IMG/VR virus record: IMGVR_UViG_2563366997_000002
Strand: one strand, 5' to 3'
Length of the DNA stretch: 21,588 nt
Origin: a virus
Taxonomy: Duplodnaviria; Heunggongvirae; Uroviricota; Caudoviricetes
In this document: piece after piece, positions 1-13,135 of the stretch
Numbering within the stretch: position 1 is the stretch's first letter
Layout of the letters: every line of letters starts with the position of its first letter
The notes under the pieces: model-generated
What the model saw: the letters and a program-made list of their open reading frames with translations, nothing else
Told to the model about the DNA's origin: nothing
Databases searched by the model: none
Position numbers and translations under genes: made by a program

Positions 1-393
1 TCATATTACTGGATAATCATCATCATCCTTCCCTATCCGATTGATAACGAATGTCACTACCCCGACAACTGTAACATCATCCAGGGCCTCACCTTCCAAC
101 GCTTCACCGTCTCGTGTAATAAATGCCCGGCCCATAATTTTTGCAAAATCAGTGCCGCCGCCGTATTGAATTAAAACGGTATCTCCTTGCTTTGGTTTTA
201 CGAAGCAATCCACTACGGCATAGCCGGTTTCTGTTTGTACTATCCGAGTATTGGGGCCGGTACCGCAGAGTGAATCAACGGTCAGACGCCGTTCAACATA
301 GTCAGCAGCTGGCGACGGAAATCCCACGTTATAGCCCTCCGTTTGGGTTGTATAACTGGAACGTGAGCTCATCGCCTTCCTGCGTTGAGACAT
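1..393 (-). CDS. UmuD/ImpA-like S24-family protein (SOS mutagenesis accessory-like)
   Basis: 130-aa ORF whose stop codon is the first 3 bases of the window. Contains GFPSPAADYVE, matching the UmuD/MucA N-terminal cleavage-site region (E. coli UmuD has CGFPSPAADYVE), and a C-terminal VVGVVTFV-type strand pattern like UmuD. The canonical GDSM serine motif is not evident by eye. Nine nt downstream of the preceding small ORF. Confidence 0.6.
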   Translation of the reverse strand: MSQRRKAMSSRSSYTTQTEGYNVGFPSPAADYVERRLTVDSLCGTGPNTRIVQTETGYAVVDCFVKPKQGDTVLIQYGGGTDFAKIMGRAFITRDGEALEGEALDDVTVVGVVTFVINRIGKDDDDYPVI

Positions 394-402
394 CCCGGAA
401 TG

Positions 403-561
403 TCAGTGCTCTATCCACTGGTTAGCCTGGCGCGGTGACCATATCCAGTTAACTTTTGCGAGTTCCCGGATAAAACCGGACGTTGTCACGGTGCGACGGC
501 CATTAGGCTCAATGACAATTGCCTGACGCCAGGCTATTTCGATATCTGAGTTTCGCGGCAT
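403..561 (-). CDS. small hypothetical protein (52 aa), first gene of an SOS-box operon
   Basis: ORF track gives 403..606, but that start would place the LexA box inside the coding region. The internal ATG at 561..559 has a strong SD (GGAGGTG, 5-nt spacer) and lies just downstream of the box. Gene order recalls impC-impA; that is inference. Confidence 0.4.
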   Translation of the reverse strand: MPRNSDIEIAWRQAIVIEPNGRRTVTTSGFIRELAKVNWIWSPRQANQWIEH

Positions 562-579
562 AACTTCACCTCCCGAAAA

Positions 580-599
580 TACTGTTTTTATATACAGTA
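580..599 (-). promoter_or_regulatory. LexA (SOS) box
   Basis: Minus-strand sequence TACTGTATATAAAAACAGTA is a perfect CTGT-N8-ACAG LexA operator with AT-rich spacer, about 20 bp upstream of the 52-aa ORF start. Confidence 0.7.
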
Positions 600-1103
600 G
601 ATTCATTAAGAGATCTGATCAATACAGGTTCCAGCTATCAATCAGGAACACTGAGGAGGAAACCAGTCACCTTTTAGCCTCTGATATTGGTTTCACTTAG
701 TGATTATGTTGTCTATGTGCCAACTATGAACTATCTTTTCTCAAAACCTGCTACTGCAAAATGGATATAAGATGTCACAGACGGACTTGCTGATTGTTGT
801 TTTTACTCTGGGCATTTTAGCCTTTGGCTATTCCATATGGTTCATTTCGAACAGAATACTTTGCTCTATATTTCATAGACTTACAAAGAATATATGAATT
901 GGGATGGTATAGACCCAAATTCATGGTCATTGCCCCTCGACGTCGGAAGGTACTTACAGATCATCTTCGCTCTTAACCTATCACATCGGCACCTACTCCA
1001 TGATGTAACAGCTCAGACCAGAAATATCTGGAAGCTTTAGGCATATTCTTGGAAGATAGACGAGCGCAAAGACGCACACAGCAATGATGTTATGTAGTAT
1101 TTT

Positions 1104-1135
1104 CCCCTTGAGTGTGCCTGCTCAAGGGGGTTTTT
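1104..1135 (+). terminator. putative Rho-independent terminator
   Basis: ccccttgag / loop tgtgcctg / ctcaagggg gives a 9-bp GC-rich stem, followed by TTTTT. The U-tract is present only in the plus orientation. Confidence 0.45.
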
Positions 1136-1150
1136 ATCGCCGTATTGTAC

Positions 1151-1219
1151 TGGCAAATATTTGTAAATAGTCTTCACCCCCACGCCTGTCACATCGGCCA
1201 CACGCGACTGGACAGGCGG
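1151..1219 (-). pseudogene. remnant of a serine DNA-invertase C-terminal HTH (second copy)
   Basis: In frame immediately after the stop of the 1220..1414 ORF, the minus strand reads PPVQSRVADVTGVGVKTIYKYLP. This is about 80% identical at nucleotide level to the HTH segment at 3160..3215 and has no start codon or catalytic domain. Confidence 0.35.
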
Positions 1220-1419
1220 TTAGTCCGGTATGTTTCTCGCGCTACTACTGCTTACGTTAACGTCTGGTAATGATCTAGCGGCGCGACGTAAAGCGGCGTT
1301 GAAAGCAATTATAGTGACCGGCCGGCATTGGTACTTCACACGGTTAGAATGGCTCTGAAATAAAAAAACATCTTCTGGATAGCGTTCTCTTCTACGAGCA
1401 ATGATCCCCTCCACTGGAG
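1220..1419 (-). pseudogene. tyrosine-recombinase-like gene, 3' part (split by IS4)
   Basis: Joining 2846..3079 to 1220..1419 across one copy of the 11-bp target duplication restores a continuous frame (...KSTPPVE-GIIARRRERYPEDVFLF...). The joined protein has an integrase-core-like segment HTGLSAGRLLSIRYDDIDGD...VKS but no downstream HxxR...Y catalytic region. Confidence 0.5.
1409..1419. repeat. IS4 target-site duplication, left copy (CTCCACTGGAG)
   Basis: Identical 11-mer at 2846..2856 directly flanks the other IS4 end. Confidence 0.85.
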
Positions 1420-2845
1420 TAATGCCGATCAGTTAAGGATCAGTTGACCGATCCAGTGGCTGTGTAAGAATCCGGAAACGCTCACTCGTTTCCGGATTTT
1501 TTTATGCACATTGGACAGGCCCTTGATTTGGTATCCCGTTACGATTCTCTGCGTAACCCACTGACTTCTCTGGGGGATTACCTCGACCCCGAACTCATCT
1601 CTCGTTGCCTTGCCGAATCAGGTACTGTAACGCTACGCAAGCGCCGTCTTCCCCTCGAAATGATGGTCTGGTGTATTGTTGGCATGGCGCTTGAGCGTAA
1701 AGAACCTCTTCACCAGATTGTGAATCGCCTGGACATCATGCTGCCGGGCAATCGCCCCTTCGTTGCCCCCAGTGCCGTTATTCAGGCCCGCCAGCGCCTG
1801 GGAAGTGAGGCTGTCCGCCGCGTGTTCACGAAAACAGCGCAGCTCTGGCATAACGCCACGCCGCATCCGCAATGGTGCGGCCTGACCCTGCTGGCCATCG
1901 ATGGTGTGTTCTGGCGCACACCGGATACACCAGAGAACGATGCAGCCTTCCCCCGCCAGACACATGCCGGGAACCCGGCGCTCTACCCGCAGGTCAAAAT
2001 GGTCTGCCAGATGGAACTGACCAGCCATCTGCTGACGGCTGCAGCCTTCGGCACGATGAAGAACAGCGAAAATGAGCTTGCTGAGCAACTTATAGAACAA
2101 ACCGGCGATAACACTCTGACGTTAATGGACAAAGGTTATTACTCACTGGGACTGTTAAATGCCTGGAGCCTGGCGGGAGAACACCGCCACTGGATGATCC
2201 CTCTCAGAAAGGGAGCGCAATATGAAGAGATCAGAAAACTGGGTAAAGGCGATCATCTGGTGAAGCTGAAAACCAGCCCGCAGGCACGAAAAAAGTGGCC
2301 GGGACTGGGAAATGAGGTGACAGCCCGCCTGCTGACCGTGACGCGCAAAGGAAAAGTCTGCCATCTGCTGACGTCGATGACGGACGCCATGCGCTTCCCC
2401 GGAGGAGAAATGGCGGATCTGTACAGTCATCGCTGGGAAATCGAACTGGGATACAGGGAGATAAAACAGACGATGCAACTGAGCAGGCTGACGCTGAGAA
2501 GTAAAAAGCCGGAGCTTGTGGAGCAAGAGCTGTGGGGTGTCTTACTGGCTTATAATCTGGTGAGATATCAGATGATTAAAATGGCGGAACATCTGAAAGG
2601 TTACTGGCCGAATCAACTGAGTTTCTCAGAATCATGCGGAATGGTGATGAGAATGCTGATGACATTGCAGGGCGCTTCACCGGGACGTATACCGGAGCTG
2701 ATGCACGATCTTGCAAGTATGGGACAACTTGTGAAATTACCGACAAGAAGGGAAAGGGCCTTCCCGAGAGTGGTAAAGGAGAGGCCCTGGAAATACCCCA
2801 CAGCCCCGAAAAAGAGCCAGTCAGTTGCTTAACTGACTGGCATTA
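1420..2845 (+). mobile_element. IS4 insertion sequence, complete copy
   Basis: 1426 bp; imperfect terminal inverted repeats (left TAATGCCGATCAGTTAAGG, right end reverse-complement TAATGCCAGTCAGTTAAGC); single 442-aa transposase ORF; flanked by an 11-bp direct repeat. Confidence 0.95.
1504..2832 (+). CDS. insG: IS4 transposase
   Basis: 442-aa [23 protein letters not shown]..., recognised as the IS4-family transposase; it occupies almost the whole IS. Confidence 0.95.
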
Positions 2846-2856
2846 CTCCACTGGAG
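2846..2856. repeat. IS4 target-site duplication, right copy (CTCCACTGGAG)
   Basis: Exact direct repeat of 1409..1419. Confidence 0.85.
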
Positions 2857-3079
2857 GGGTTGATTTAACACGTAGCTCCTTCAGGTGACCCTGTTTTCGT
2901 ATCAGTATCAAGTCACCATCAATATCATCATATCGAATACTCAGCAGCCTTCCAGCGCTTAAACCCGTGTGAAAAATTAACGCCCACAAGTCAGCCCATG
3001 TATCTGAGATGGAAACAAGATTGCTGTTAATAGTTAAAAATTGCTCAAAACTTATTGTTTTCTTACCGTTCACGAACAA
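2846..3079 (-). pseudogene. tyrosine-recombinase-like gene, 5' part (split by IS4)
   Basis: N-terminal 78 codons (apparent TTG start at 3079); the reading frame runs into the IS4 end where a stop occurs. See 1220..1419. Confidence 0.5.
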
Positions 3080-3156
3080 ACCAAACTGTTTTCAAAGCTG
3101 AATGAATTGATTAAGCCAAACGTAACATATCAGGAAAAGTAGTGAAATCTTTGCCT

Positions 3157-3369
3157 TCAAGTCGCCGGGAGGTACTTGTAGATTGTTTTCACGTCCACGC
3201 CTGTCACATCAGCCACCTGCTGCCGGGTAGCGCCGTTCTCCAGCATTCTGCGGCACCGCTCCACCACTTCTTCAGTCATTATCCGGCGGCGGCCGCCGAC
3301 TCTCTCCTGCTCCATCGCTGCGGACCGACTCGGATGCATTCGGCAAATTCTAGGCCGTGATTTTTCCAA
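3157..3369 (-). pseudogene. serine DNA-invertase (Hin/Gin/Pin/Cin family) C-terminal HTH remnant
   Basis: C-terminal 45 aa, GGRRRIMTEEVVERCRRMLENGATRQQVADVTGVDVKTIYKYLPA, aligns by eye with the Hin C-terminal DNA-binding domain. The N-terminal about 140-aa catalytic domain is absent and the 5' end overlaps the upstream 266-aa gene. Confidence 0.6.
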
Positions 3370-4150
3370 TCCTCTCCATCAGATATGCCAGGATGACATC
3401 CAGTGTGCTGGTCCCATATGCATATTTGCCGGGGAAAACCAAACATTCTGACAAAACGGATGTTAACGGAGACACTGAACCATTGCCTGCTCCGCCAATA
3501 CTCATTTTTTGAGACGGGCTATACGCTGGGATTGTATAGCCCGTCACTTGTCGGCTGGTCACTGCAGACTGATCTGACCGCTGGTATGCAATTGCATAGG
3601 ATCCAGCAGCCTTGTTAGAGCACATAACTACAGCGCAGAATAAAGATTGCCCTATATTGTTAGGAGTAAATGCCAGATCGGCCTCGATCCCTCCATTCAG
3701 AAAAATCGGGAATGAACCTGCTGACGTTGTACGAATGCCGACGCCATGAGGTGTGCTTTCCTGGGTTGCGATAACCGCTCTGTCCTGTGGCGTAGCCGGA
3801 AGCGCCCCACCTGGCAGCTGATAGATGAATGCAAAAGTATTGATGTTTGCGTCCATAACCACCGCCGTATCACCAGCCATGCCGGATGCACCGGAGAAAT
3901 TAAGCCCCTGCAAAACAGAACCATTCAGCTTTGTGGATGGCTCGAGGGTCTCCAGTGACTTGAAAAGTCCGCCATCTAATCGGTTAGAGATAGCTACTAC
4001 TTTTGCACCAGACCCCATTTTTAGAAACTCTGTCTTCACTGGTGTCCATACTGATGGGGATAGTTCTGAGATCGCTTTCTCTGCCGCTGTTTGTGAGTAC
4101 ACAGGGAGTAAGGGGTTATTCAGTCCAGTTAGTGTGTAAATCAGTCTCAT
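3350..4150 (-). CDS. hypothetical protein (266 aa), probably tail-associated
   Basis: Starts 7 nt after the esterase-domain gene stop with a GAGGAT SD; Gly/Ser/Thr/Ala-rich composition. No family recognised. Confidence 0.5.
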   Translation of the reverse strand: MRLIYTLTGLNNPLLPVYSQTAAEKAISELSPSVWTPVKTEFLKMGSGAKVVAISNRLDGGLFKSLETLEPSTKLNGSVLQGLNFSGASGMAGDTAVVMDANINTFAFIYQLPGGALPATPQDRAVIATQESTPHGVGIRTTSAGSFPIFLNGGIEADLAFTPNNIGQSLFCAVVMCSNKAAGSYAIAYQRSDQSAVTSRQVTGYTIPAYSPSQKMSIGGAGNGSVSPLTSVLSECLVFPGKYAYGTSTLDVILAYLMERIGKITA

Positions 4151-4159
4151 TTTTTATCC

Positions 4160-6223
4160 TCAGAAAACGTTAATACGAAAAGCGGGGAGCCAGTCGTAAA
4201 GAGTCACGGATGTGTCATACACCCATATGATTCCAGCGGAAGATCGAACACACCCTCTTGCACCAAGAGTCCGCCCGGAAGGTTTTACAGATGCGCCGCT
4301 CTGAAGTGGGTTTTCTGCTGTCGCATAGGAAACGCGCCCAAAACGTCCAGAGGGGGCGGTCGCCAGGTTAATCAGCACGCCCTTGCCGTCCGAGCTGATC
4401 GCGATGCTCGATATAGCAGGTGGAGCACCAGTCTCATCCGTGTAGCTAAAGCCGTAATTGGCCAGACCGGAGGTGTTGATCGTAGTCGTGTCCAGCACCA
4501 GGTTCGTATACGCTGGGACATTGATTTGTATCTGCGTGGGTGAGTTCCACACGAAACTGGTCGGAACCATCCCTGACCAGCCGCTCGTAAACCACTCCTG
4601 GAGAAGCGCTCTCGCCACAGCTGCTCCGCGCCGGTTCTGGCCCGCACACGTCAAGTGCAGACCGTCTGAAATAAAATCGTACTGGTACAAACTATTGACC
4701 AGCCTGAATTGCTCTTTTCCGTGCAATCGCGTCGACGCCAGTCGCGCGTACTGGCCTGTAAATGCACCATGCCCGTCATTGACATACCCCAGCTGGGTAA
4801 TGGCGATAATCGGCGGTTCGTTTTGACCCGTTCTTGCGATGATGTCGCTGGTGATTTGTCTCTGGTACTGCCTCATCCGTGATTCATACATTCCTTCTCG
4901 TAATCCTGACCAGTCCTCGTCGGACTCTCCCTGCATCCAGTCAACGCAGAGAACAATCGGCAGCCAGCCGCGTGCTTTACAGGCCGTTACGCAGTCTTCG
5001 ATTGAATCGAGCAGATACTGATATACCTGGTTACCCCGTTTCTGGTACTCGTAAGCCTGACCAGACTGCGCACATACGATTGATAGCGTGCGCGGCATGA
5101 TTCCGGTAGCTGCAGCCATATCGCGAATGAAGGTGTTCGCGAGGCCGCTTGCGGCCGTTTCTTTATCTGTCCCACTTACTGCCTCAACCAGTGGCACCAG
5201 AGTAGTGCTGCGTGTCCCTGTACGCCTAACCCCGCCGCTGAGCATGAAAGCGTTATCAGGATATATCGGCGTTGCTGCGACAATGGTTTGATCGGCGTCA
5301 GGACAATATCCTCGAGCGTTGGATTGCCCAGCAGTCACAAAGATAAAACATACAGGCACTGTCTCTGAGTAGGGGTACACAGTAGACCCTGACAAATGAA
5401 GTCCATACTCAGGGAGCTGGTTGGCATCATCGTCGCCACCACCACCGCCATTTCCGTTATTAACAGCTACCAGGCCACCGTCTGAGTAAATCCAGTGCTT
5501 CCCACCAACCGTATAAGCTTCAACGATCTGGTTTGTGGTTGAATCAACCGTCATCCGCCACACTTTTTCACCGCCAATAAACTGCGGTATAGAACCCTCC
5601 CGGCCCAGCGCATAGAGTTCGGATTCTTGTTGGGTTAAAAGTTCGTAATATTTTCCGTCAGGACCGATTTGAATTAATCTGCCGCTTGTATTTAAAAATG
5701 GAGCCACGCGGGAAGTCTCCGGATCATATGCTGCCAGGGTCACGCTGTCTGGCGATACCTGGTATGCGTAGTCGTCACGAACCATCCGCCGTCCGGTTGG
5801 CTGCAGCGTTCCAGCGAGGTTGATATACTCATCGGCCAGAGAGCTTCCGTCCTGACTGCGGACATAGGTTGTTGAACCTGCCGGAATATTCGCAATATCC
5901 GCCTGCGCCGCCGCCAGCGTCATGTACTGCCGGCTGAGAGGGATCAGGTTTTGGCGGGCTTCATCAATAACAGCGTCGGTAGCAGCTGCCATTTTTTTAG
6001 TAGCCCCAATTATCGTATCCTGGGCGTTACCAAAACGATCTATAAAAGTATCGCTTTCGCTGTTCAGGAAATCATCGTACGCCAGGGCGTTATCATTCAG
6101 ATCCTTCATGCTATTTGAAGGTCTTGGATTGCCGGTATTATATCTTTTGTCCATACCTGTTCCTGTCTTCATCTTTTCAATGAAGCAATTAAGATTGACG
6201 CCCCGCCCCTTCAGGGCTAACAT
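4160..6223 (-). CDS. tail-region protein with SGNH/SASA-type esterase domain (putative receptor-modifying tailspike or fibre)
   Basis: Up to 687 aa. Central domain has an SGNH-hydrolase nucleophile block VTAGQSNARGY and a distal DGLH block, as in sialate-O-acetylesterase-like proteins; a fibre-like N-terminal region and a C-terminal beta-rich region flank it. The true start is probably an internal Met (6172, 6154 or 6109), because 6218..6223 overlaps the -10 element of a divergent promoter. Confidence 0.7.
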   Translation of the reverse strand: MLALKGRGVNLNCFIEKMKTGTGMDKRYNTGNPRPSNSMKDLNDNALAYDDFLNSESDTFIDRFGNAQDTIIGATKKMAAATDAVIDEARQNLIPLSRQYMTLAAAQADIANIPAGSTTYVRSQDGSSLADEYINLAGTLQPTGRRMVRDDYAYQVSPDSVTLAAYDPETSRVAPFLNTSGRLIQIGPDGKYYELLTQQESELYALGREGSIPQFIGGEKVWRMTVDSTTNQIVEAYTVGGKHWIYSDGGLVAVNNGNGGGGGDDDANQLPEYGLHLSGSTVYPYSETVPVCFIFVTAGQSNARGYCPDADQTIVAATPIYPDNAFMLSGGVRRTGTRSTTLVPLVEAVSGTDKETAASGLANTFIRDMAAATGIMPRTLSIVCAQSGQAYEYQKRGNQVYQYLLDSIEDCVTACKARGWLPIVLCVDWMQGESDEDWSGLREGMYESRMRQYQRQITSDIIARTGQNEPPIIAITQLGYVNDGHGAFTGQYARLASTRLHGKEQFRLVNSLYQYDFISDGLHLTCAGQNRRGAAVARALLQEWFTSGWSGMVPTSFVWNSPTQIQINVPAYTNLVLDTTTINTSGLANYGFSYTDETGAPPAISSIAISSDGKGVLINLATAPSGRFGRVSYATAENPLQSGASVKPSGRTLGARGCVRSSAGIIWVYDTSVTLYDWLPAFRINVF
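6195..6223 (+). promoter_or_regulatory. putative sigma70 promoter for the HTH/acyltransferase cassette
   Basis: TTGACG, 17-bp spacer, TAACAT, located 9-33 bp upstream of the first plus-strand starts. Confidence 0.4.
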
Positions 6224-6231
6224 CGCCTTAC

Positions 6232-6519
6232 GTGTTTAAACGGTTAAATAAGAGAATGATTTTAATAAATAAATACACCCCTCCAACGCAGGAAGATTTA
6301 GCCAGACTGAAATCCGCACTAAATTACTCCGGAAACCAAATGGCAGGGCTCGCAGGTGTAGCCAGCGATAGCCAATGGCGGAAATACACTGGCGGAGAGA
6401 GCCCCAGGGTAATGTCAAGACACATACTGTTTTATATTGCAGCTCAGCTTGTTCTGTCTGATGAGCAACTTAACAATGTAATAAATAAAATGCGCGATAT
6501 TGGCGCGGAGATAAAATAA
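6232..6519 (+). CDS. small XRE-like HTH protein (putative regulator), coupled to the acyltransferase
   Basis: 95 aa from a GTG start (87 aa from ATG at 6256). The segment LNYSGNQMAGLAGVASDSQWRKYTGGE resembles a Cro/C1-type helix-turn-helix. Its stop overlaps the acyltransferase start (ATAATG). AT-rich. Confidence 0.5.
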   Translation: MFKRLNKRMILINKYTPPTQEDLARLKSALNYSGNQMAGLAGVASDSQWRKYTGGESPRVMSRHILFYIAAQLVLSDEQLNNVINKMRDIGAEIK

Positions 6520-7610
6520 TGCTTGGCCTAATAAGGTTTTTTTTGGCATCGTGCGTCATTGCTTTTCACTTAACGGCTCGCATACCTGCACTTGGCAACT
6601 TTGCAGTGAATTGCTTCTATGTTATTAGTGGTTTTTTAATAACATACATTTTGCATGAAACATACAAGTTCAACTTCTCTATGTTTTGGAAAAATAGAAT
6701 ACTGAGGTTATTCCCGGCATATATATTTTTTCTCGTCATGGGCTTTCTTATTATAAAATTAATTCCATCCGCAAAGGAATTCCACTCAAACTGGACAGGC
6801 AATTTCTTACCTGGAGATTTATTAGGAAACCTCTTAATCTTCCCCTGGGCTTTCCTTTCTGATAATGCTGTAGCAAATCCATTCGGTGCCTTTTCATCCA
6901 TTTATCACTTTGCTATTGATGGTAATAGATTCAGAATAGTCACATCATCATGGTCAGTGGGTGTTGAGATAACATGTTATTTTTTATTGTGGCTTTTCAT
7001 AGCCCGAAATAAATTTACAGCCATTACGTCGATTCTGCTTTCACTGCTTTATCATGCTTACGTATATGTAGTACACCATTCTTTTGATATGGCGTATTTC
7101 CCATTCCTTGCTGCAACACTTCCTTTTAGCATGGGTTCTCTGGGTTATTTTGCCCATAGAAAGTTCAAAGCTATGTATCTTTCTCCACACAAAGCTTTTT
7201 TAATAACATTTATTTGCATCGGGATTTTTATTACCAATTGGCATTTATATACAATTAATCCATTAGGTCAGTACAACATAATACTTTACTACACCAATAA
7301 TGTAATAGCATTGTTTACAACCCTGGTATTATTAAAAATAAAGACAAACATACATCTTGAGAAAATACTCAAGTGGTTTGGTGACCTGGCCTATCCAATT
7401 TTTCTTTGTCAATATTTTGGTGGATTTCTAGCATGGCTTGCTATTGGTGGTGAAAATCGTGGCTTATCCATCTTTTTATTAGGCTACCCAATATCAATTG
7501 CACTTGGGATCGTTTGTGTAATATTAATAGACAAGCCACTAATTAAAATTAGAGCAAAAATAAGGGCGGACGCTCAAAGCAAAAATAATCAGGAAAACTC
7601 TTCAAGGTAA
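6519..7610 (+). CDS. acyltransferase family 3 (OafA/Oac-like) integral membrane O-acyltransferase
   Basis: 363 aa, strongly hydrophobic with multiple predicted TM segments. N-terminal region FHLTARIPALGNFAVNCFYVISGFLITY is typical of AT3 acyltransferases. Markedly AT-rich relative to flanks; opposite strand to the structural genes. Confidence 0.8.
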   Translation: MLGLIRFFLASCVIAFHLTARIPALGNFAVNCFYVISGFLITYILHETYKFNFSMFWKNRILRLFPAYIFFLVMGFLIIKLIPSAKEFHSNWTGNFLPGDLLGNLLIFPWAFLSDNAVANPFGAFSSIYHFAIDGNRFRIVTSSWSVGVEITCYFLLWLFIARNKFTAITSILLSLLYHAYVYVVHHSFDMAYFPFLAATLPFSMGSLGYFAHRKFKAMYLSPHKAFLITFICIGIFITNWHLYTINPLGQYNIILYYTNNVIALFTTLVLLKIKTNIHLEKILKWFGDLAYPIFLCQYFGGFLAWLAIGGENRGLSIFLLGYPISIALGIVCVILIDKPLIKIRAKIRADAQSKNNQENSSR

Positions 7611-8374
7611 ACTAAACCATTCGCTCCTTTTCCTGATGAATAGTTACCATTCCCCCCGGCACCACCTGAGCCGGGGAAACCGCCATCATCGCCAGAACTA
7701 CCGAAGTGGCCATTGCCACCCGTTGATGAAAATGCAGATCCTCCAGCCCCGCCAATAAAAGCATCAGAACCATAATACAGACCACCTTGAGATATTCCGC
7801 CAGTAATATTTAAAATGTTCCCGCCACTTCCGATACCTCCAGCAGGAACTGTAGCCCCGCCACCACTCCCTCCAGTAGCTGAGATTAAACTCCCGAACCT
7901 TGTATCACCACCATTCCCGCCTTTAGACGAGACACCAGCAGCAACAGCACTGCCACCAGTACCTATCGTCACAGATATAGTTTCGTTATCAGAAATATTA
8001 AATAACCCTTCCGAAAATCCACCAGCACAACCTCCAGATGCGCCCACACTAACTGGAGCATTCTGGCCACCTCCCCCCGCTCCCCAAACTTTCACCCGCA
8101 CTCTTTTCGTCCCTTTAGTTGGAGTGTAAGTCCCTGACTTAGTAAAGGTGACAATATTAAGCAGGCGACCGCCACCAATCGCTTTAAGAACCTGTGAATC
8201 ATCATCAGGATCAAGCTCAAGCCCCGCGCCCTCAACAACGTTTACCAGCTCACGCTGAAAGGTATTCATCATCTCAGCATTAATTATTGTCGGTGAAATA
8301 CCATTAGCGACATTACCATTAGTGTATTCACCATTAGCATCAGCGGTGTCAGTTGTACTGCCAACTTTTCTCAT
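7589..8374 (-). CDS. glycine-rich tail fibre protein
   Basis: 261 aa. N-terminus (NAEMMNTFQRELVNVVEGAGLELDPDDDSQVLKAI) resembles the conserved tail-fibre attachment domain, followed by GGxGG-rich repeats. Directly downstream of the baseplate genes. Confidence 0.65.
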   Translation of the reverse strand: MRKVGSTTDTADANGEYTNGNVANGISPTIINAEMMNTFQRELVNVVEGAGLELDPDDDSQVLKAIGGGRLLNIVTFTKSGTYTPTKGTKRVRVKVWGAGGGGQNAPVSVGASGGCAGGFSEGLFNISDNETISVTIGTGGSAVAAGVSSKGGNGGDTRFGSLISATGGSGGGATVPAGGIGSGGNILNITGGISQGGLYYGSDAFIGGAGGSAFSSTGGNGHFGSSGDDGGFPGSGGAGGNGNYSSGKGANGLVYLEEFS

Positions 8375-8400
8375 ATAAACCTTCTTTTTAAATGTCTGAA

Positions 8401-9075
8401 TTAAACGTAACCGGAAGCGATATCAAATATTTTGGCAAACTCAGGCGTGACTTCGTAAACCCCCTCATCGTTAAAACCGAAATAGATATAGCCGAATTTG
8501 ACCAGGGTGTATGAGGGGGCGAGGGCATTAATCCGGCATTCAAGCTGACGATTACCCCAGGAACGTAATGGATCGCCACAATAACTCAGACCTGCACGGG
8601 CATAAGTTATCGTTGTGTCTTCCGCCTCTACCAGCCAGACAAATGGCCAGTCATCCCCATTTAGCCCGTCACCACATACCGATAAGCCAGCACGCGCCTG
8701 CCGGTATTCCTTAATCGAAATCGTATAACCCATTGCTGCGGCAATACTGATGAAATAGCTCTTTGACTGCCCGCCGGTACTGATGAGTTTCGATACAATG
8801 TCAGACTGACGCTTCGCAATCGTATCCACTTCGCCAATCGAGCAATCATCAGGTAAGCCGAGTGTTTTTTCCCACTCGGTGAGCATAATCGTCGCAGTTT
8901 TTGGAAAGGCACCGCGCAGCAATGCAAGTGCGTCGTTATCACTTCGCTGGAAACTGGCCGCAATGGCCCGCAGTACAGCGGCCTGAACAGCTTTTGGATC
9001 CCGTGTCCACGCTCGGCCGGTGGGGATAAGCGCCTGCAGTGCCTTCTGATAATCGTCTGTTGAGAAAAGGCTCAT
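8401..9075 (-). CDS. Mu gp48-like / P2 gpI-like baseplate protein (DUF2313-type)
   Basis: 224 aa; start overlaps the upstream J-like gene stop (ATGA-type coupling); size and position match the baseplate wedge partner. Confidence 0.65.
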   Translation of the reverse strand: MSLFSTDDYQKALQALIPTGRAWTRDPKAVQAAVLRAIAASFQRSDNDALALLRGAFPKTATIMLTEWEKTLGLPDDCSIGEVDTIAKRQSDIVSKLISTGGQSKSYFISIAAAMGYTISIKEYRQARAGLSVCGDGLNGDDWPFVWLVEAEDTTITYARAGLSYCGDPLRSWGNRQLECRINALAPSYTLVKFGYIYFGFNDEGVYEVTPEFAKIFDIASGYV

Positions 9076-11237: not shown

Positions 11238-12319
11238 TGGTTTAGTCCGGGTATTTGCTGGTAGAAAGCATAAGGCTGGACAGCGAAAGCCTCCGGGGGC
11301 ATCAGATAAAGGCGCGCATGGGTGCCGTCACTGTCTCTGATATAAGTCACCTCTGCGATAAGCAATTCGGTGTCAGGCAGCTGCAGACTCGGGATGTTGA
11401 CCGGGATAAGCGTATTCGGCTCCCATAATTTCCCGGATTTATCGCGCCAGGAATCAATCGTCACCGTTAACTGACGGGAACGGCCGTATCGGCGGTTCAT
11501 CTCCCAGTCAATCGCTCGCTGAGCCTGTTGTGAAGCCATCAGTGTACTTTCAACAATAATGATCCGTTTTCGGTAACGCATACTGGCCGCCTCAGGATCG
11601 CGGGCCGTCGCCAGCGTCACCGAATCATAAGCCGTATCTGGCGAGAATCCTGCAATCGGCGAAATGCTCATCGATACGCCGACGTAATCAGAAAAGCGGT
11701 CAGCCATCGAACGGCGGTAATAAGCCTGTTCGATATTTACCCCTTCTGCGATACCGCTGGCCGCGCGCTTTGTCCCCACCCGGGTCAGAAATAAGTTACC
11801 GTCAGGCTGATCGTAATAAAGCAATGCCGACCAGCGGGAGACACGATCAAGTATTTCCTGTGGCGATTCCCCCCAGTTCAGGGAAAATTGCGGAACTTTC
11901 ACCAGATCATCAACGTCTGTACTTACGCCAATGTTGTAATGGGATGCGAGGCGGGAGGCTATATCAAGCGCATTACTGTTATTGATGACGTTATTTGGCC
12001 ATTCAGCAGAGCAATCAACGAGATCTGCGCACTTACTGCGGCCTGAGGCTCTGACTTCATGGCGCGAACGGGAAATAGCAGGCGACCAGTCATCAACATA
12101 CCCCGTCACTACCAGGTCGTTACCAAGCTTTACCTGACAAGGCATCCCTTCCTTTACCAGCTGCTTCTGGTCACTTCCCGGAAAATAATCCATCAGTCCC
12201 AGGTCAAAATCGGAGGGAAAACGCTCAATGCCACGGGTCACCCGCACAGAGTCCCATCCTTCAATGATTTTTCCGCCCACTGTCAGGGAGACAATATCCT
12301 GATCATTATCCGTACTCAT
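11234..12319 (-). CDS. baseplate hub protein (Mu P/gp44, P2 gpD late-control-D family)
   Basis: 361 aa; size, order (hub, then spike, gp46, J) and general resemblance to the phage tail protein D family. It does not resemble a major capsid protein. Confidence 0.7.
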   Translation of the reverse strand: MSTDNDQDIVSLTVGGKIIEGWDSVRVTRGIERFPSDFDLGLMDYFPGSDQKQLVKEGMPCQVKLGNDLVVTGYVDDWSPAISRSRHEVRASGRSKCADLVDCSAEWPNNVINNSNALDIASRLASHYNIGVSTDVDDLVKVPQFSLNWGESPQEILDRVSRWSALLYYDQPDGNLFLTRVGTKRAASGIAEGVNIEQAYYRRSMADRFSDYVGVSMSISPIAGFSPDTAYDSVTLATARDPEAASMRYRKRIIIVESTLMASQQAQRAIDWEMNRRYGRSRQLTVTIDSWRDKSGKLWEPNTLIPVNIPSLQLPDTELLIAEVTYIRDSDGTHARLYLMPPEAFAVQPYAFYQQIPGLNQ

Positions 12320-12702
12320 TGTCTCAACACCTTCATCGTCGTCGGCATAAATGCCGGATGCGGTACGCTGGCCTCCTGTATCAGTTCATTTGCCCGCGAG
12401 GCATCCTGATACAGGCGGTTGGCCAGTACCAGGGCAGGAACCGGCACCGCAGTATTGATTTGCATCAACTCACTCAGTCCGGATGAAGTCTGAGCCATGG
12501 TATTCAGAAAAGCGGTTCTCACGTCCATCAATGCCGTATAAAGATCATCATCGCCACGGTCGCCCGCCAGTAGTAACGCGGTATCCAGTTGCCCGGCCAC
12601 GCGTTGAGTGATTTCTTCGGCCTCATTACGACTGGTTGGGTTGTAATCTGCAGCAGCATCCGTCATGGCTCCGGTACATAGCACTACGATCAGCGTGTTC
12701 AT
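12316..12702 (-). CDS. hypothetical protein, possibly the 3' remnant of a DNA-circulation (Mu N-like) gene
   Basis: 128 aa from the first ATG; an internal ATG at 12666 has a GGAG SD. Its stop overlaps the hub start (ATGA). It overlaps the decoration-protein ORF by 41-77 nt in another frame, consistent with a deletion junction. Confidence 0.4.
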   Translation of the reverse strand: MNTLIVVLCTGAMTDAAADYNPTSRNEAEEITQRVAGQLDTALLLAGDRGDDDLYTALMDVRTAFLNTMAQTSSGLSELMQINTAVPVPALVLANRLYQDASRANELIQEASVPHPAFMPTTMKVLRQ

Positions 12703-13135
12703 GGTGCCAGCCAGTTGCTGGCTGCTTTCGGAACGCTGGTAAAGGTGCCTGGGCGCTGTCTTTCAGGAAGATGGCCAGCGGACGTAGTGCTGTTTTCAGT
12801 TCCGGCGCAGTCCAGGAATCGTCAAAAATAATATGATTCTGGTTGAACTCGCCCATCAGGTACAGGCCGCCGGACTGATCGCCATGGGTGGAAGCGTCAA
12901 CATCATCAACCAGAATGGCCGCTGGCGTCTCGCTACCATCCGTTGCGGTTTTCACACTGGCTGTATATTTGCCACTGGCGGTGATCATGCCAAGCACAGT
13001 GCCACGCTTATACACACCGCCGGTGATCGTGCCGGTGTCAGTGACCAGTTGCAGCGTACCGGCAATTAACTGATCCGGCACAAACACTGAACTCTTCATG
13101 CCAGGTGCAAAGGCATTCTGACCAAATTGATCCAT
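12626..13135 (-). CDS. head decoration protein (lambda gpD-like) with aberrant 3' extension
   Basis: First about 125 aa fit the head-decoration pattern (...AAILVDDVD...GLYLMGEFN...LKTALRPLAIFLK). The last about 40 aa (PLPAFRKQPATGWHHEHADRSAMYRSHDGCCCRLQPNQS) look like out-of-frame read-through. Start overlaps the scaffold-like gene stop (TAATG). Confidence 0.6.
   Translation of the reverse strand: MDQFGQNAFAPGMKSSVFVPDQLIAGTLQLVTDTGTITGGVYKRGTVLGMITASGKYTASVKTATDGSETPAAILVDDVDASTHGDQSGGLYLMGEFNQNHIIFDDSWTAPELKTALRPLAIFLKDSAQAPLPAFRKQPATGWHHEHADRSAMYRSHDGCCCRLQPNQS

Follow-up and report, generated by a model that had tools for sequence, protein, structure and literature searches.

A small gene co-inherited with the esterase module of a phage tail fibre may encode a lectin-fold accessory subunit

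Introduction

The locus described here raises a simple question: what is the role of a 266-aa protein whose gene lies directly behind that of an esterase-carrying tail fibre? It is found in a 21,588 nt stretch of DNA from a member of the Caudoviricetes (IMG/VR record IMGVR_UViG_2563366997_000002), referred to below, at its full length, as the window. An earlier sequence-only reading had suggested that the small gene encodes a receptor-binding or chaperone partner of the esterase protein, and it will be called the partner gene. Its coding status, its occurrence beside other esterase fibres, its relatives and the predicted fold of its product are considered in turn, along with four explanations of what the protein might do.

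Gene arrangement and coding status

The features of the fibre locus, all on the minus strand, are as follows (window coordinates):

3350..4150, minus strand: partner gene, 266 aa, with an ATG start at 4148-4150 and a TAG stop at 3350-3352.
4148..4165, minus strand: fibre-partner junction, comprising the fibre TGA (4160-4162), a GAGGA Shine-Dalgarno (SD) sequence, the 9-nt spacer GGATAAAAA and the partner ATG.
4160..6223, minus strand: esterase tail-fibre ORF of 687 codons, with a tail-fibre N-terminus and a SASA/SGNH esterase domain.
5783..6154, minus strand: N-terminal anchor of the fibre, 90% identical to that of sister prophages and including the linker 'LIPLSRQYMTLAAAQADIANIP'.
4160..5782, minus strand: C-terminal module of the fibre, about 540 aa, containing a SASA-type (SGNH-like) esterase and a C-terminal domain ending ...LYDWLPAFRINVF.
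4598..5344, minus strand: SASA esterase domain (PF03629), residues 294-542 of the ORF.

Between positions 3000 and 6300 the window is 100% identical to Escherichia coli HS and to 15 other complete E. coli genomes. The HS copy of the partner is WP_001237226.1, annotated as a hypothetical protein, a label that it carries throughout the E. coli and Klebsiella records that were read. The 266-aa ORF starts with ATG and lies directly downstream of the esterase-fibre ORF on the same strand, as had been claimed. It is a real gene and not a chance ORF, since full-length homologues occur in other genomes (44-97% identity) and dN/dS is low: 0.08-0.17 for every pair with unsaturated dS, a range matching that of the fibre module. 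The gene is thus under purifying selection. Its GC content (49%) is similar to that of the fibre, and the protein is rich in Gly, Ser and Thr (29% of residues), a composition that had been noted earlier as pointing to a beta-rich fold, which is also what structure prediction gave (see below). The protein begins with a highly conserved stretch of 19 residues, MRLIYTLTGLNNPLLPVYS, and its conserved N-terminal strand reads MRLxYTxTGLNNPLLPVY.

The assignment of the fibre ORF is based on profile matches, with the SASA family (Pfam PF03629) being matched at E 1.8e-11 and 44.6 bits (cut-off 24.8), while a PHROG scan matched the N-terminus to phrog_4201, phrog_9750 and others. The true start of the fibre is probably M24 (window position 6154), which is also the start given in the E. 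coli HS annotation.

The two genes are tightly coupled. The good SD sequence ascribed to the partner gene is present as GAGGA and overlaps the fibre stop codon (TTC TGA GGA TAA AAA ATG), but the gap of 7 nt given previously should be corrected to 9 nt. No promoter-like or terminator-like site was seen between the fibre and partner genes on the minus strand.

Co-inheritance of the fibre module and the partner gene

Five genomic contexts were read: the E. coli HS-type prophage, Klebsiella phage ST16-OXA48phi5.2, Escherichia phage AV124, the NRZ96052a prophage and a Sodalis prophage. In all five the partner gene directly follows a fibre gene carrying the same esterase module of about 540 aa, and in none was the partner ORF missing beside the homologous esterase gene, so that the proposed association with the esterase protein holds up in every context read. 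The tail backbones that carry the pair are unrelated, and include the Mu/P2-like baseplate of the E. coli HS-type prophage. The four others compare with the window as follows:

Klebsiella phage ST16-OXA48phi5.2: gp10-type baseplate; fibre module 83-87% identity, partner 72%.
Escherichia phage AV124 (lytic, Vequintavirinae): Tail_spike_N anchor; fibre module 82-86%, partner 73%.
E. coli NRZ96052a prophage: 780-aa fibre; module DNA 82%, partner 68%.
Sodalis prophage: lambda-like, with an Stf-type N-terminus; fibre module 52%, partner 44%.

The identities of fibre and partner fall in parallel (87/72%, 86/73% and 52/44%), and identity to the Klebsiella, AV124 and Sodalis fibres is confined to the C-terminal module, which is the part of the fibre co-inherited with the partner gene. 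At the 5' edge, similarity stops at the junction between anchor and module, around '...TGRRM'. The Klebsiella, AV124, NRZ96052a and Sodalis copies have the same fibre-partner junction as the window, exactly or very nearly so, and the spacing between the two genes is 9-12 nt in all contexts read. Both fibre module and partner gene are also present in Klebsiella phage KpnBHU6, and the partner gene is found in a Klebsiella replicon from a plasmid collection. Family searches never found the partner gene away from the esterase fibre module.

Since similarity ends exactly at the partner stop codon, the fibre module and partner gene form one mobile cassette. Within it, identity is uneven; between the window and the Klebsiella phage it is 100% at 5390-5210 and about 55-70% across the partner gene, where synonymous divergence is also higher. 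This mosaic profile indicates that recombination has occurred inside the cassette as well. The papers that were found do not describe the strict pairing of partner and esterase module or its boundary at the stop codon.

These observations bear on whether the partner could be a passenger, that is, for example a lysogenic-conversion or exclusion gene that hitch-hikes behind the tail operon. The locus is one where morons are often found, a low-GC acyltransferase adjoins, and umuD-like genes lie downstream. However, the GC content of the partner gene is fibre-like rather than moron-like, its SD is coupled to the fibre gene and no separate promoter was seen, it is kept inside the tail-fibre cluster of a strictly lytic phage (AV124), and it was never found apart from the esterase module, all of which make a passenger highly improbable.

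The 3' edge of the cassette and the invertase remnant

Downstream of the partner gene lies the remnant of a DNA invertase:

3157..3324, minus strand: serine recombinase (invertase) remnant, retaining only the C-terminal HTH_7 domain (Pfam); annotated as a pseudogene in E. coli HS.

The remnant aligns to residues 128-182 of a 182-aa recombinase, and its homology begins about 25 nt past the partner stop codon. The sequence-only reading had the 3' end of the partner gene overwriting the invertase. The partner gene does adjoin a 5'-truncated invertase, but it does not overlap invertase-homologous sequence: the apparent overlap of 20 nt (3350-3369) falls in a spurious, non-homologous N-terminal extension of the remnant ORF, and a true overlap was rejected on these grounds. 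Because homology starts only some 25 nt after the stop codon, the supposed overwriting amounts to adjacency. Nucleotide similarity to other cassettes stops exactly at the partner stop (3350), a pattern that fits replacement of the 5' part of the invertase gene by the cassette.

A gene in this setting might encode a fibre-specific assembly chaperone of the kind represented by Tfa, P2 gpG, Mu U or T4 gp38/gp57A. Such a protein would fold or trimerise the C-terminal domain of the fibre, and be absent from the virion or loosely retained in it. The position is the classic one of Tfa, 3' of the fibre gene and translationally coupled to it, the invertase remnant alongside recalls the fibre loci of the Mu/P2/e14 type, and the partner is swapped and diverges together with the C-terminal module of the fibre, as Tfa proteins do. 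We nevertheless judge both the chaperone assignment and this account of its action to be unlikely, for reasons that come from the sequence searches, the predicted fold and related fibres described below.

Sequence searches

The partner was compared with Pfam, PHROG, NCBIfam and PDB sequences, using single sequences and profiles at E values up to 10, and no meaningful match was found; as none of the models in Pfam, PHROG or NCBIfam fits it, the family is new to these databases. The remote homology search proposed with the original suggestion has thus shown no clear homology to an unrelated family in these four collections. Tail-fibre-assembly families (Caudo_TAP/Tfa and gpG/U type) were among those scanned in Pfam, PHROG and NCBIfam without a match to the partner, which argues against a chaperone. 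The only hit of these searches, to DUF6856 (E 0.05-0.16), was dismissed as meaningless.

An exhaustive HMMER search of 1.84 billion cluster representatives recovered only about 20 close relatives, from E. coli and Klebsiella, and one distant relative, a 265-aa protein of Sodalis sp. RH22 with 44% identity. At E<=0.001 this search gave 13 proteins, with the Sodalis protein, fragments and frameshifted copies included, and two word-indexed searches for further relatives did not take the family beyond these kinds of sequence. The sequence clusters to which the partner belongs contain several hundred members. One of the 13 HMMER matches, P0031 (1342 aa, with lamin-tail-like repeats), was set aside as a spurious repeat protein.

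Predicted structure of the partner protein

AlphaFold2 (AF2) failed on an alignment of 14 family sequences (pLDDT 31, pTM 0.29). With 27 sequences, after twelve phrog_4390-type partners (see below) had been added, the best model reached pLDDT 66 and pTM 0.74, and shows a beta-sandwich (residues ~33-240) followed by a C-terminal helix (248-265). The five models ranged in pLDDT from 45 to 66, with residues 1-12, 39-68 and 123-131 below 50. Since the added sequences are not provably homologous, the model may have borrowed its fold from them. This caveat is partly offset by three observations: the strand positions were already visible in the failed family-only model, AF2 turned confident with the larger alignment, and the LamG-like order of motifs can be followed by eye in the partner itself (FAFIYQL, LFCAVVM, KMSIGG and SECLVFPG, then the helix). 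Structure prediction had been recommended as a check, and it yielded a lectin-like beta-sandwich with moderate confidence, from an alignment that includes these unproven homologues. On this modelling, the partner quite likely has a ConA-like/LamG lectin-type jelly-roll beta-sandwich.

The best structural match of the model is the tailspike gp15 of cyanopodophage Pan3 (PDB 9vyh chain q, 269 aa), a structure that comes from a virion cryo-EM map. Further matches are to the lectin-like Hc-N domain of BoNT, sialidase lectin domains, legume lectins (E about 1e-3 in a Foldseek search of PDB), the CBM2 of phage J-1 Dit, and the lectin-like domain of the phage SASA-esterase NanS-p (PDB 6yp6). In BFVD, Foldseek matched viral ConA-like/LamG proteins, several of them about 250 aa long, with E values down to 2.5e-7. 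Calnexin and calreticulin, which are chaperones, and some enzymes have ConA-like folds as well, and this counts against reading the fold as that of a binding subunit.

The predicted lectin fold tilts towards receptor or substrate binding over a chaperone role; to our knowledge, none of the solved Tfa-type chaperones resembles a lectin jelly roll. The Pan3 match also counts against a chaperone, as gp15 sits in the virion map. From the predicted fold by itself, the partner might instead be a small beta-jelly-roll polysaccharide lyase or glycoside hydrolase that cuts capsule or O-antigen after deacetylation. We regard this as quite improbable, as there is no match to a lyase or hydrolase family and non-enzymatic lectins give equal or better fold matches. 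Nor was a conserved catalytic constellation spotted in the family: the Sodalis homologue has Met in place of the sole histidine, H135, and does not keep the stretch 'YQRSDQ'.

An adhesin of the T2/S16 gp38 type (about 262 aa, Gly-rich), similar in size to the partner, was also considered and rejected, given a single short glycine run (GGAGNG), no family hit and a different predicted fold.

Similar gene pairs behind other esterase fibres

The sister E. coli prophages have the baseplate, the acyltransferase and the first 124 residues of the fibre (90% identity) in common with the window, and differ in their C-terminal fibre modules, each of which comes with its own partner of 249 or 251 aa. One of these matches phrog_34046 and phrog_4390 (5e-7). 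The other matches Laminin_G_3 (PF13385) at E 7.5e-5 and 23.4 bits, which is below the Pfam cut-off (27.6).

More distant esterase fibres show a comparable arrangement. The fibre of Klebsiella ST13-OXA48phi12.5 is homologous to the window fibre over its full length (28% identity, E 1e-45), and those of Acinetobacter siphophages and Vibrio phage VvAW1 are 26-28% identical to it. In each of these cases the fibre gene is followed within 0-11 nt by a gene for a phrog_4390 protein of 190-258 aa. The window partner has the same placement, immediately downstream of an SGNH/SASA esterase fibre gene, and at 266 aa is similar in size to partners of 190-260 aa. The free-standing partners have a common N-terminal motif, a hydrophobic strand then N-N-x-x-L-P, and the esterase fibres a common C-terminal motif, LY-x-[WFV]-x-P-x-F.

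An hhalign comparison of the partner-family alignment with a 15-sequence phrog_4390-type alignment gave E 0.37, which is not significant, and single-sequence comparisons (hhalign, BLASTP) were not significant either. Neither the window partner nor the Sodalis homologue matched the PHROG profile phrog_4390 at E<=0.1, and a custom phrog_4390-type HMM run over the 189 ORFs of the window did not pick out the partner ORF. With the Laminin_G_3 HMM (gathering score 27.6 bits), 11 members of the partner family gave no hit at E<=10. As these sequence comparisons were all non-significant, the link between the partner and phrog_4390 rests on synteny, size, motifs and the behaviour of AF2.

The Acinetobacter partner carries ConA-like assignments from SUPERFAMILY and Gene3D and has been counted as a second tail fibre (PMC11058221); the authors who first described it used the term 'lectin-like' and speculated that it takes part in capsule degradation (PMC7354433). 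When Gp20 of fEg-Aba01 lacked 69 aa through an in-frame deletion, neither adsorption nor host range changed for the strains that were tried (PMC7354433), an outcome that suggests the subunit may be accessory and dispensable, at least on some hosts. Intact adsorption with a truncated partner also argues against a chaperone. Virion proteomics was found in the literature neither for members of the 266-aa family nor for the Acinetobacter analogues, the paper on Loki presenting SDS-PAGE only (PMC5313236).

A fused form is seen in Klebsiella phage K21lambda1, where a phrog_4390-like module follows a GGGGS linker and makes up the C-terminal tip of a 581-aa fibre. That fibre has the linker 'LIPLSRQYMTLAAAQADIANIP' in common with the window fibre. 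The position of the module at the distal tip of a fibre counts against a chaperone; by analogy, this fusion and the Pan3 tailspike match both tilt towards receptor or substrate binding. A weaker point against a chaperone is that Klebsiella prophage SGNH fibres made alone are active esterases (PMC13123978), the weight of this being limited because those fibres are not tied to the window fibre.

A possible role for the partner

On this evidence we propose that the partner, encoded by its own gene, serves the esterase fibre as an accessory receptor-binding subunit with a lectin fold. We give this reading an even chance. Docking of the subunit, its presence in the virion and its binding of glycans are all proposals. 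The protein would be made from the late transcript of the fibre, probably by coupled translation, and would dock on the C-terminal domain of the fibre, probably via the conserved N-terminal strand. The N-terminal 19 residues are the candidate docking element because the fused K21lambda1 version has no equivalent free strand. Once in place, the partner could bind a host surface polysaccharide (O-antigen or capsule) and so position the fibre, whose SASA esterase would then strip O-acetyl groups; alternatively, the partner itself may be the distal receptor-binding tip. Fibre module and partner would be swapped between phages as a single host-range cassette.

A broader and rather doubtful extension of this proposal is that esterase fibres of phages of Enterobacteria, Acinetobacter and Vibrio are two-component receptor-binding machines. 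A lectin-fold subunit would clip onto the C-terminal end of the fibre via its N-terminal strand and provide glycan specificity, and the 266-aa family would be a branch too divergent to be recognised by sequence. A bolder version would make the partner a jelly-roll lyase or hydrolase and the fibre a two-enzyme device that acts by 'deacetylate-then-cut'. If the two-component or two-enzyme view were true, the determinant of specificity would be the pair and not the fibre alone.

Comparison with known systems

Among known systems, the phrog_4390 proteins (Gp22 of fLi-Aba02/03 and Gp20 of fEg-Aba01, both from Acinetobacter phages, VvAW1 gp39 and ST13-OXA48phi12.5 QEA09545) come closest to the window partner. 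They are alike in gene position and length (190-260 aa), in having a ConA-like fold, assigned or predicted, and in starting with a strand then N-x-x-L-P and ending in a hydrophobic strand then a helix. They differ from the 266-aa family in lacking detectable sequence homology to it, and the phrog_4390 signatures 'AYGHW' and 'E-x-I-I-F/H-D/N-K-A-L-S' are absent from that family. The relation to Laminin_G_3 (PF13385) and the ConA-like superfamily is of a similar kind, with likeness in the predicted fold and the LamG-like motif order but no HMM hit to the 11 family members searched.

Pan3 gp15 has only 14% sequence identity to the partner, and belongs to another type of phage with another host. 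We know of no esterase partner for it, and a search of the literature found no paper on its role. NanS-p (phi24B vb_24B_21), a sialate O-acetylesterase, carries its esterase and lectin-like domains on a single polypeptide and is not known to be a tail fibre, whereas in the window the esterase lies within the fibre and the partner is a second gene.

Tfa of lambda, gpG of P2, U of Mu and gp38 of T2 and S16 resemble the partner in being encoded immediately 3' of the fibre gene and in being swapped with its distal module, and the window locus also has a neighbouring DNA-invertase remnant. In the Pfam, PHROG and NCBIfam scans the partner matched none of these families, and its predicted lectin jelly roll differs both from the Tfa fold and from the polyglycine sandwich of gp38. 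The gp38 proteins of T2 and S16 do show that a distal adhesin can be encoded apart from its fibre (bioRxiv 10.64898/2026.05.12.724579).

In temperate Klebsiella phages, SGNH/SASA esterase fibres have lately emerged as some of the most frequent receptor-binding enzymes and as predictors of capsule type (PMC13123978). They are treated there as single proteins, while in the case described here one such module is co-inherited with a second gene. If the partner supplies or tunes glycan binding, then host-range prediction, GWAS of host-range determinants and the swapping of receptor-binding proteins for phage therapy should use the gene pair. A small lectin-fold tail protein after an SGNH fibre is already known in outline from the Acinetobacter phages and from LamG-type tail modules; for the 266-aa family, 'lectin-fold tail-fibre accessory protein' is offered as a testable annotation, and the boundaries of the cassette are now defined for engineering.

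Mosaic structure of the cassette

On nucleotide comparison with the other cassette-bearing loci L002, L003 and L004, the cassette of esterase module and partner gene (window 3350-5782) is a recombination mosaic. Identity to the Klebsiella phage is 100% across about 5390-5210 and about 70–80% in the rest of the fibre module, while most of the partner gene is only 53–70% identical. Within the partner gene, the match to phage AV124 includes an island at window 3950-3815 that is about 90% identical.

IS4 copy and duplicated invertase remnant

The HTH-coding remnant of the invertase occurs twice (84% identity over 44 nt), each time encoding the peptide VADVTGV(G/D)VKTIYKYLP. The copies are spaced 2015 nt apart, with the region of the IS4 copy and the integrase fragments between them.

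1158-1201 and 3173-3216: invertase HTH-coding remnants
1400-2865: IS4 copy, with 38 nt terminal inverted repeats at 1400-1437 and 2828-2865
1504..2832 (+): IS4 transposase ORF, 442 aa

The IS4 copy is inserted in integrase-like gene fragments, and IS4 at this position was found in none of 5426 complete E. coli genomes; among the same genomes, the best matches to window 1-3400 covered 58% of it, as two pieces. Genes for UmuD-like S24 peptidases recur just past the cassette of fibre and partner genes in several otherwise different prophages:

Window, 1-393 (-): UmuD-like S24 peptidase gene
L002 (cassette-bearing locus), 8146-8463: UmuD-like S24 peptidase gene
L004 (cassette-bearing locus), 3556-3873: UmuD-like S24 peptidase gene
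L005 (Sodalis prophage), 11296-12986: UmuD-like S24 peptidase gene and umuC

Fibre genes and the acyltransferase gene between them

The true start of the 687-codon fibre ORF (first part, 6154-6223) is probably M24 (MDKRYNTGNP..., window 6154), the position at which similarity to the sister-prophage fibres begins and from whose equivalent the fibre annotated in E. coli HS starts, giving 664 aa. Further genes lie beyond it:

6232..6519 (+): HTH-like ORF, 95 aa, preceding the acyltransferase gene
6519..7610 (+): Acyl_transf_3 gene (PF01757, E 2e-15)
7589-8374 (-): glycine-rich tail protein, 261 aa (PF21722 Gly_rich_2; phrog_863)

The Gly_rich_2 gene lies directly 3' of the YmfQ/baseplate genes, and it shares its final 22 nt (7589-7610), in antisense orientation, with the acyltransferase gene's 3' end. 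The window prophage thus has two different fibre-type genes with a moron between them, antisense to both. The GC content of the acyltransferase gene is 35%, compared with 51–53% in the surroundings, and the gene is probably a moron for O-antigen or capsule acetylation. An OafA-like gene (Acyl_transf_3 plus SGNH) is also present in the Sodalis prophage, directly 3' of the partner gene (L005 9068-11056), so that an acetyltransferase conversion gene and a deacetylating fibre co-occur in two unrelated prophages.

Fused phrog_4390-like module in K21lambda1

Klebsiella phage vB_Kpn_K21lambda1 encodes a 581-aa Stf-type fibre (L011 2487-4232) without an esterase domain, which shares the linker module 'LIPLSRQYMTLAAAQADIANIP...TGRKM' with the window fibre and has a phrog_4390-like LamG module at its C-terminus, fused after an NGGGGS linker.
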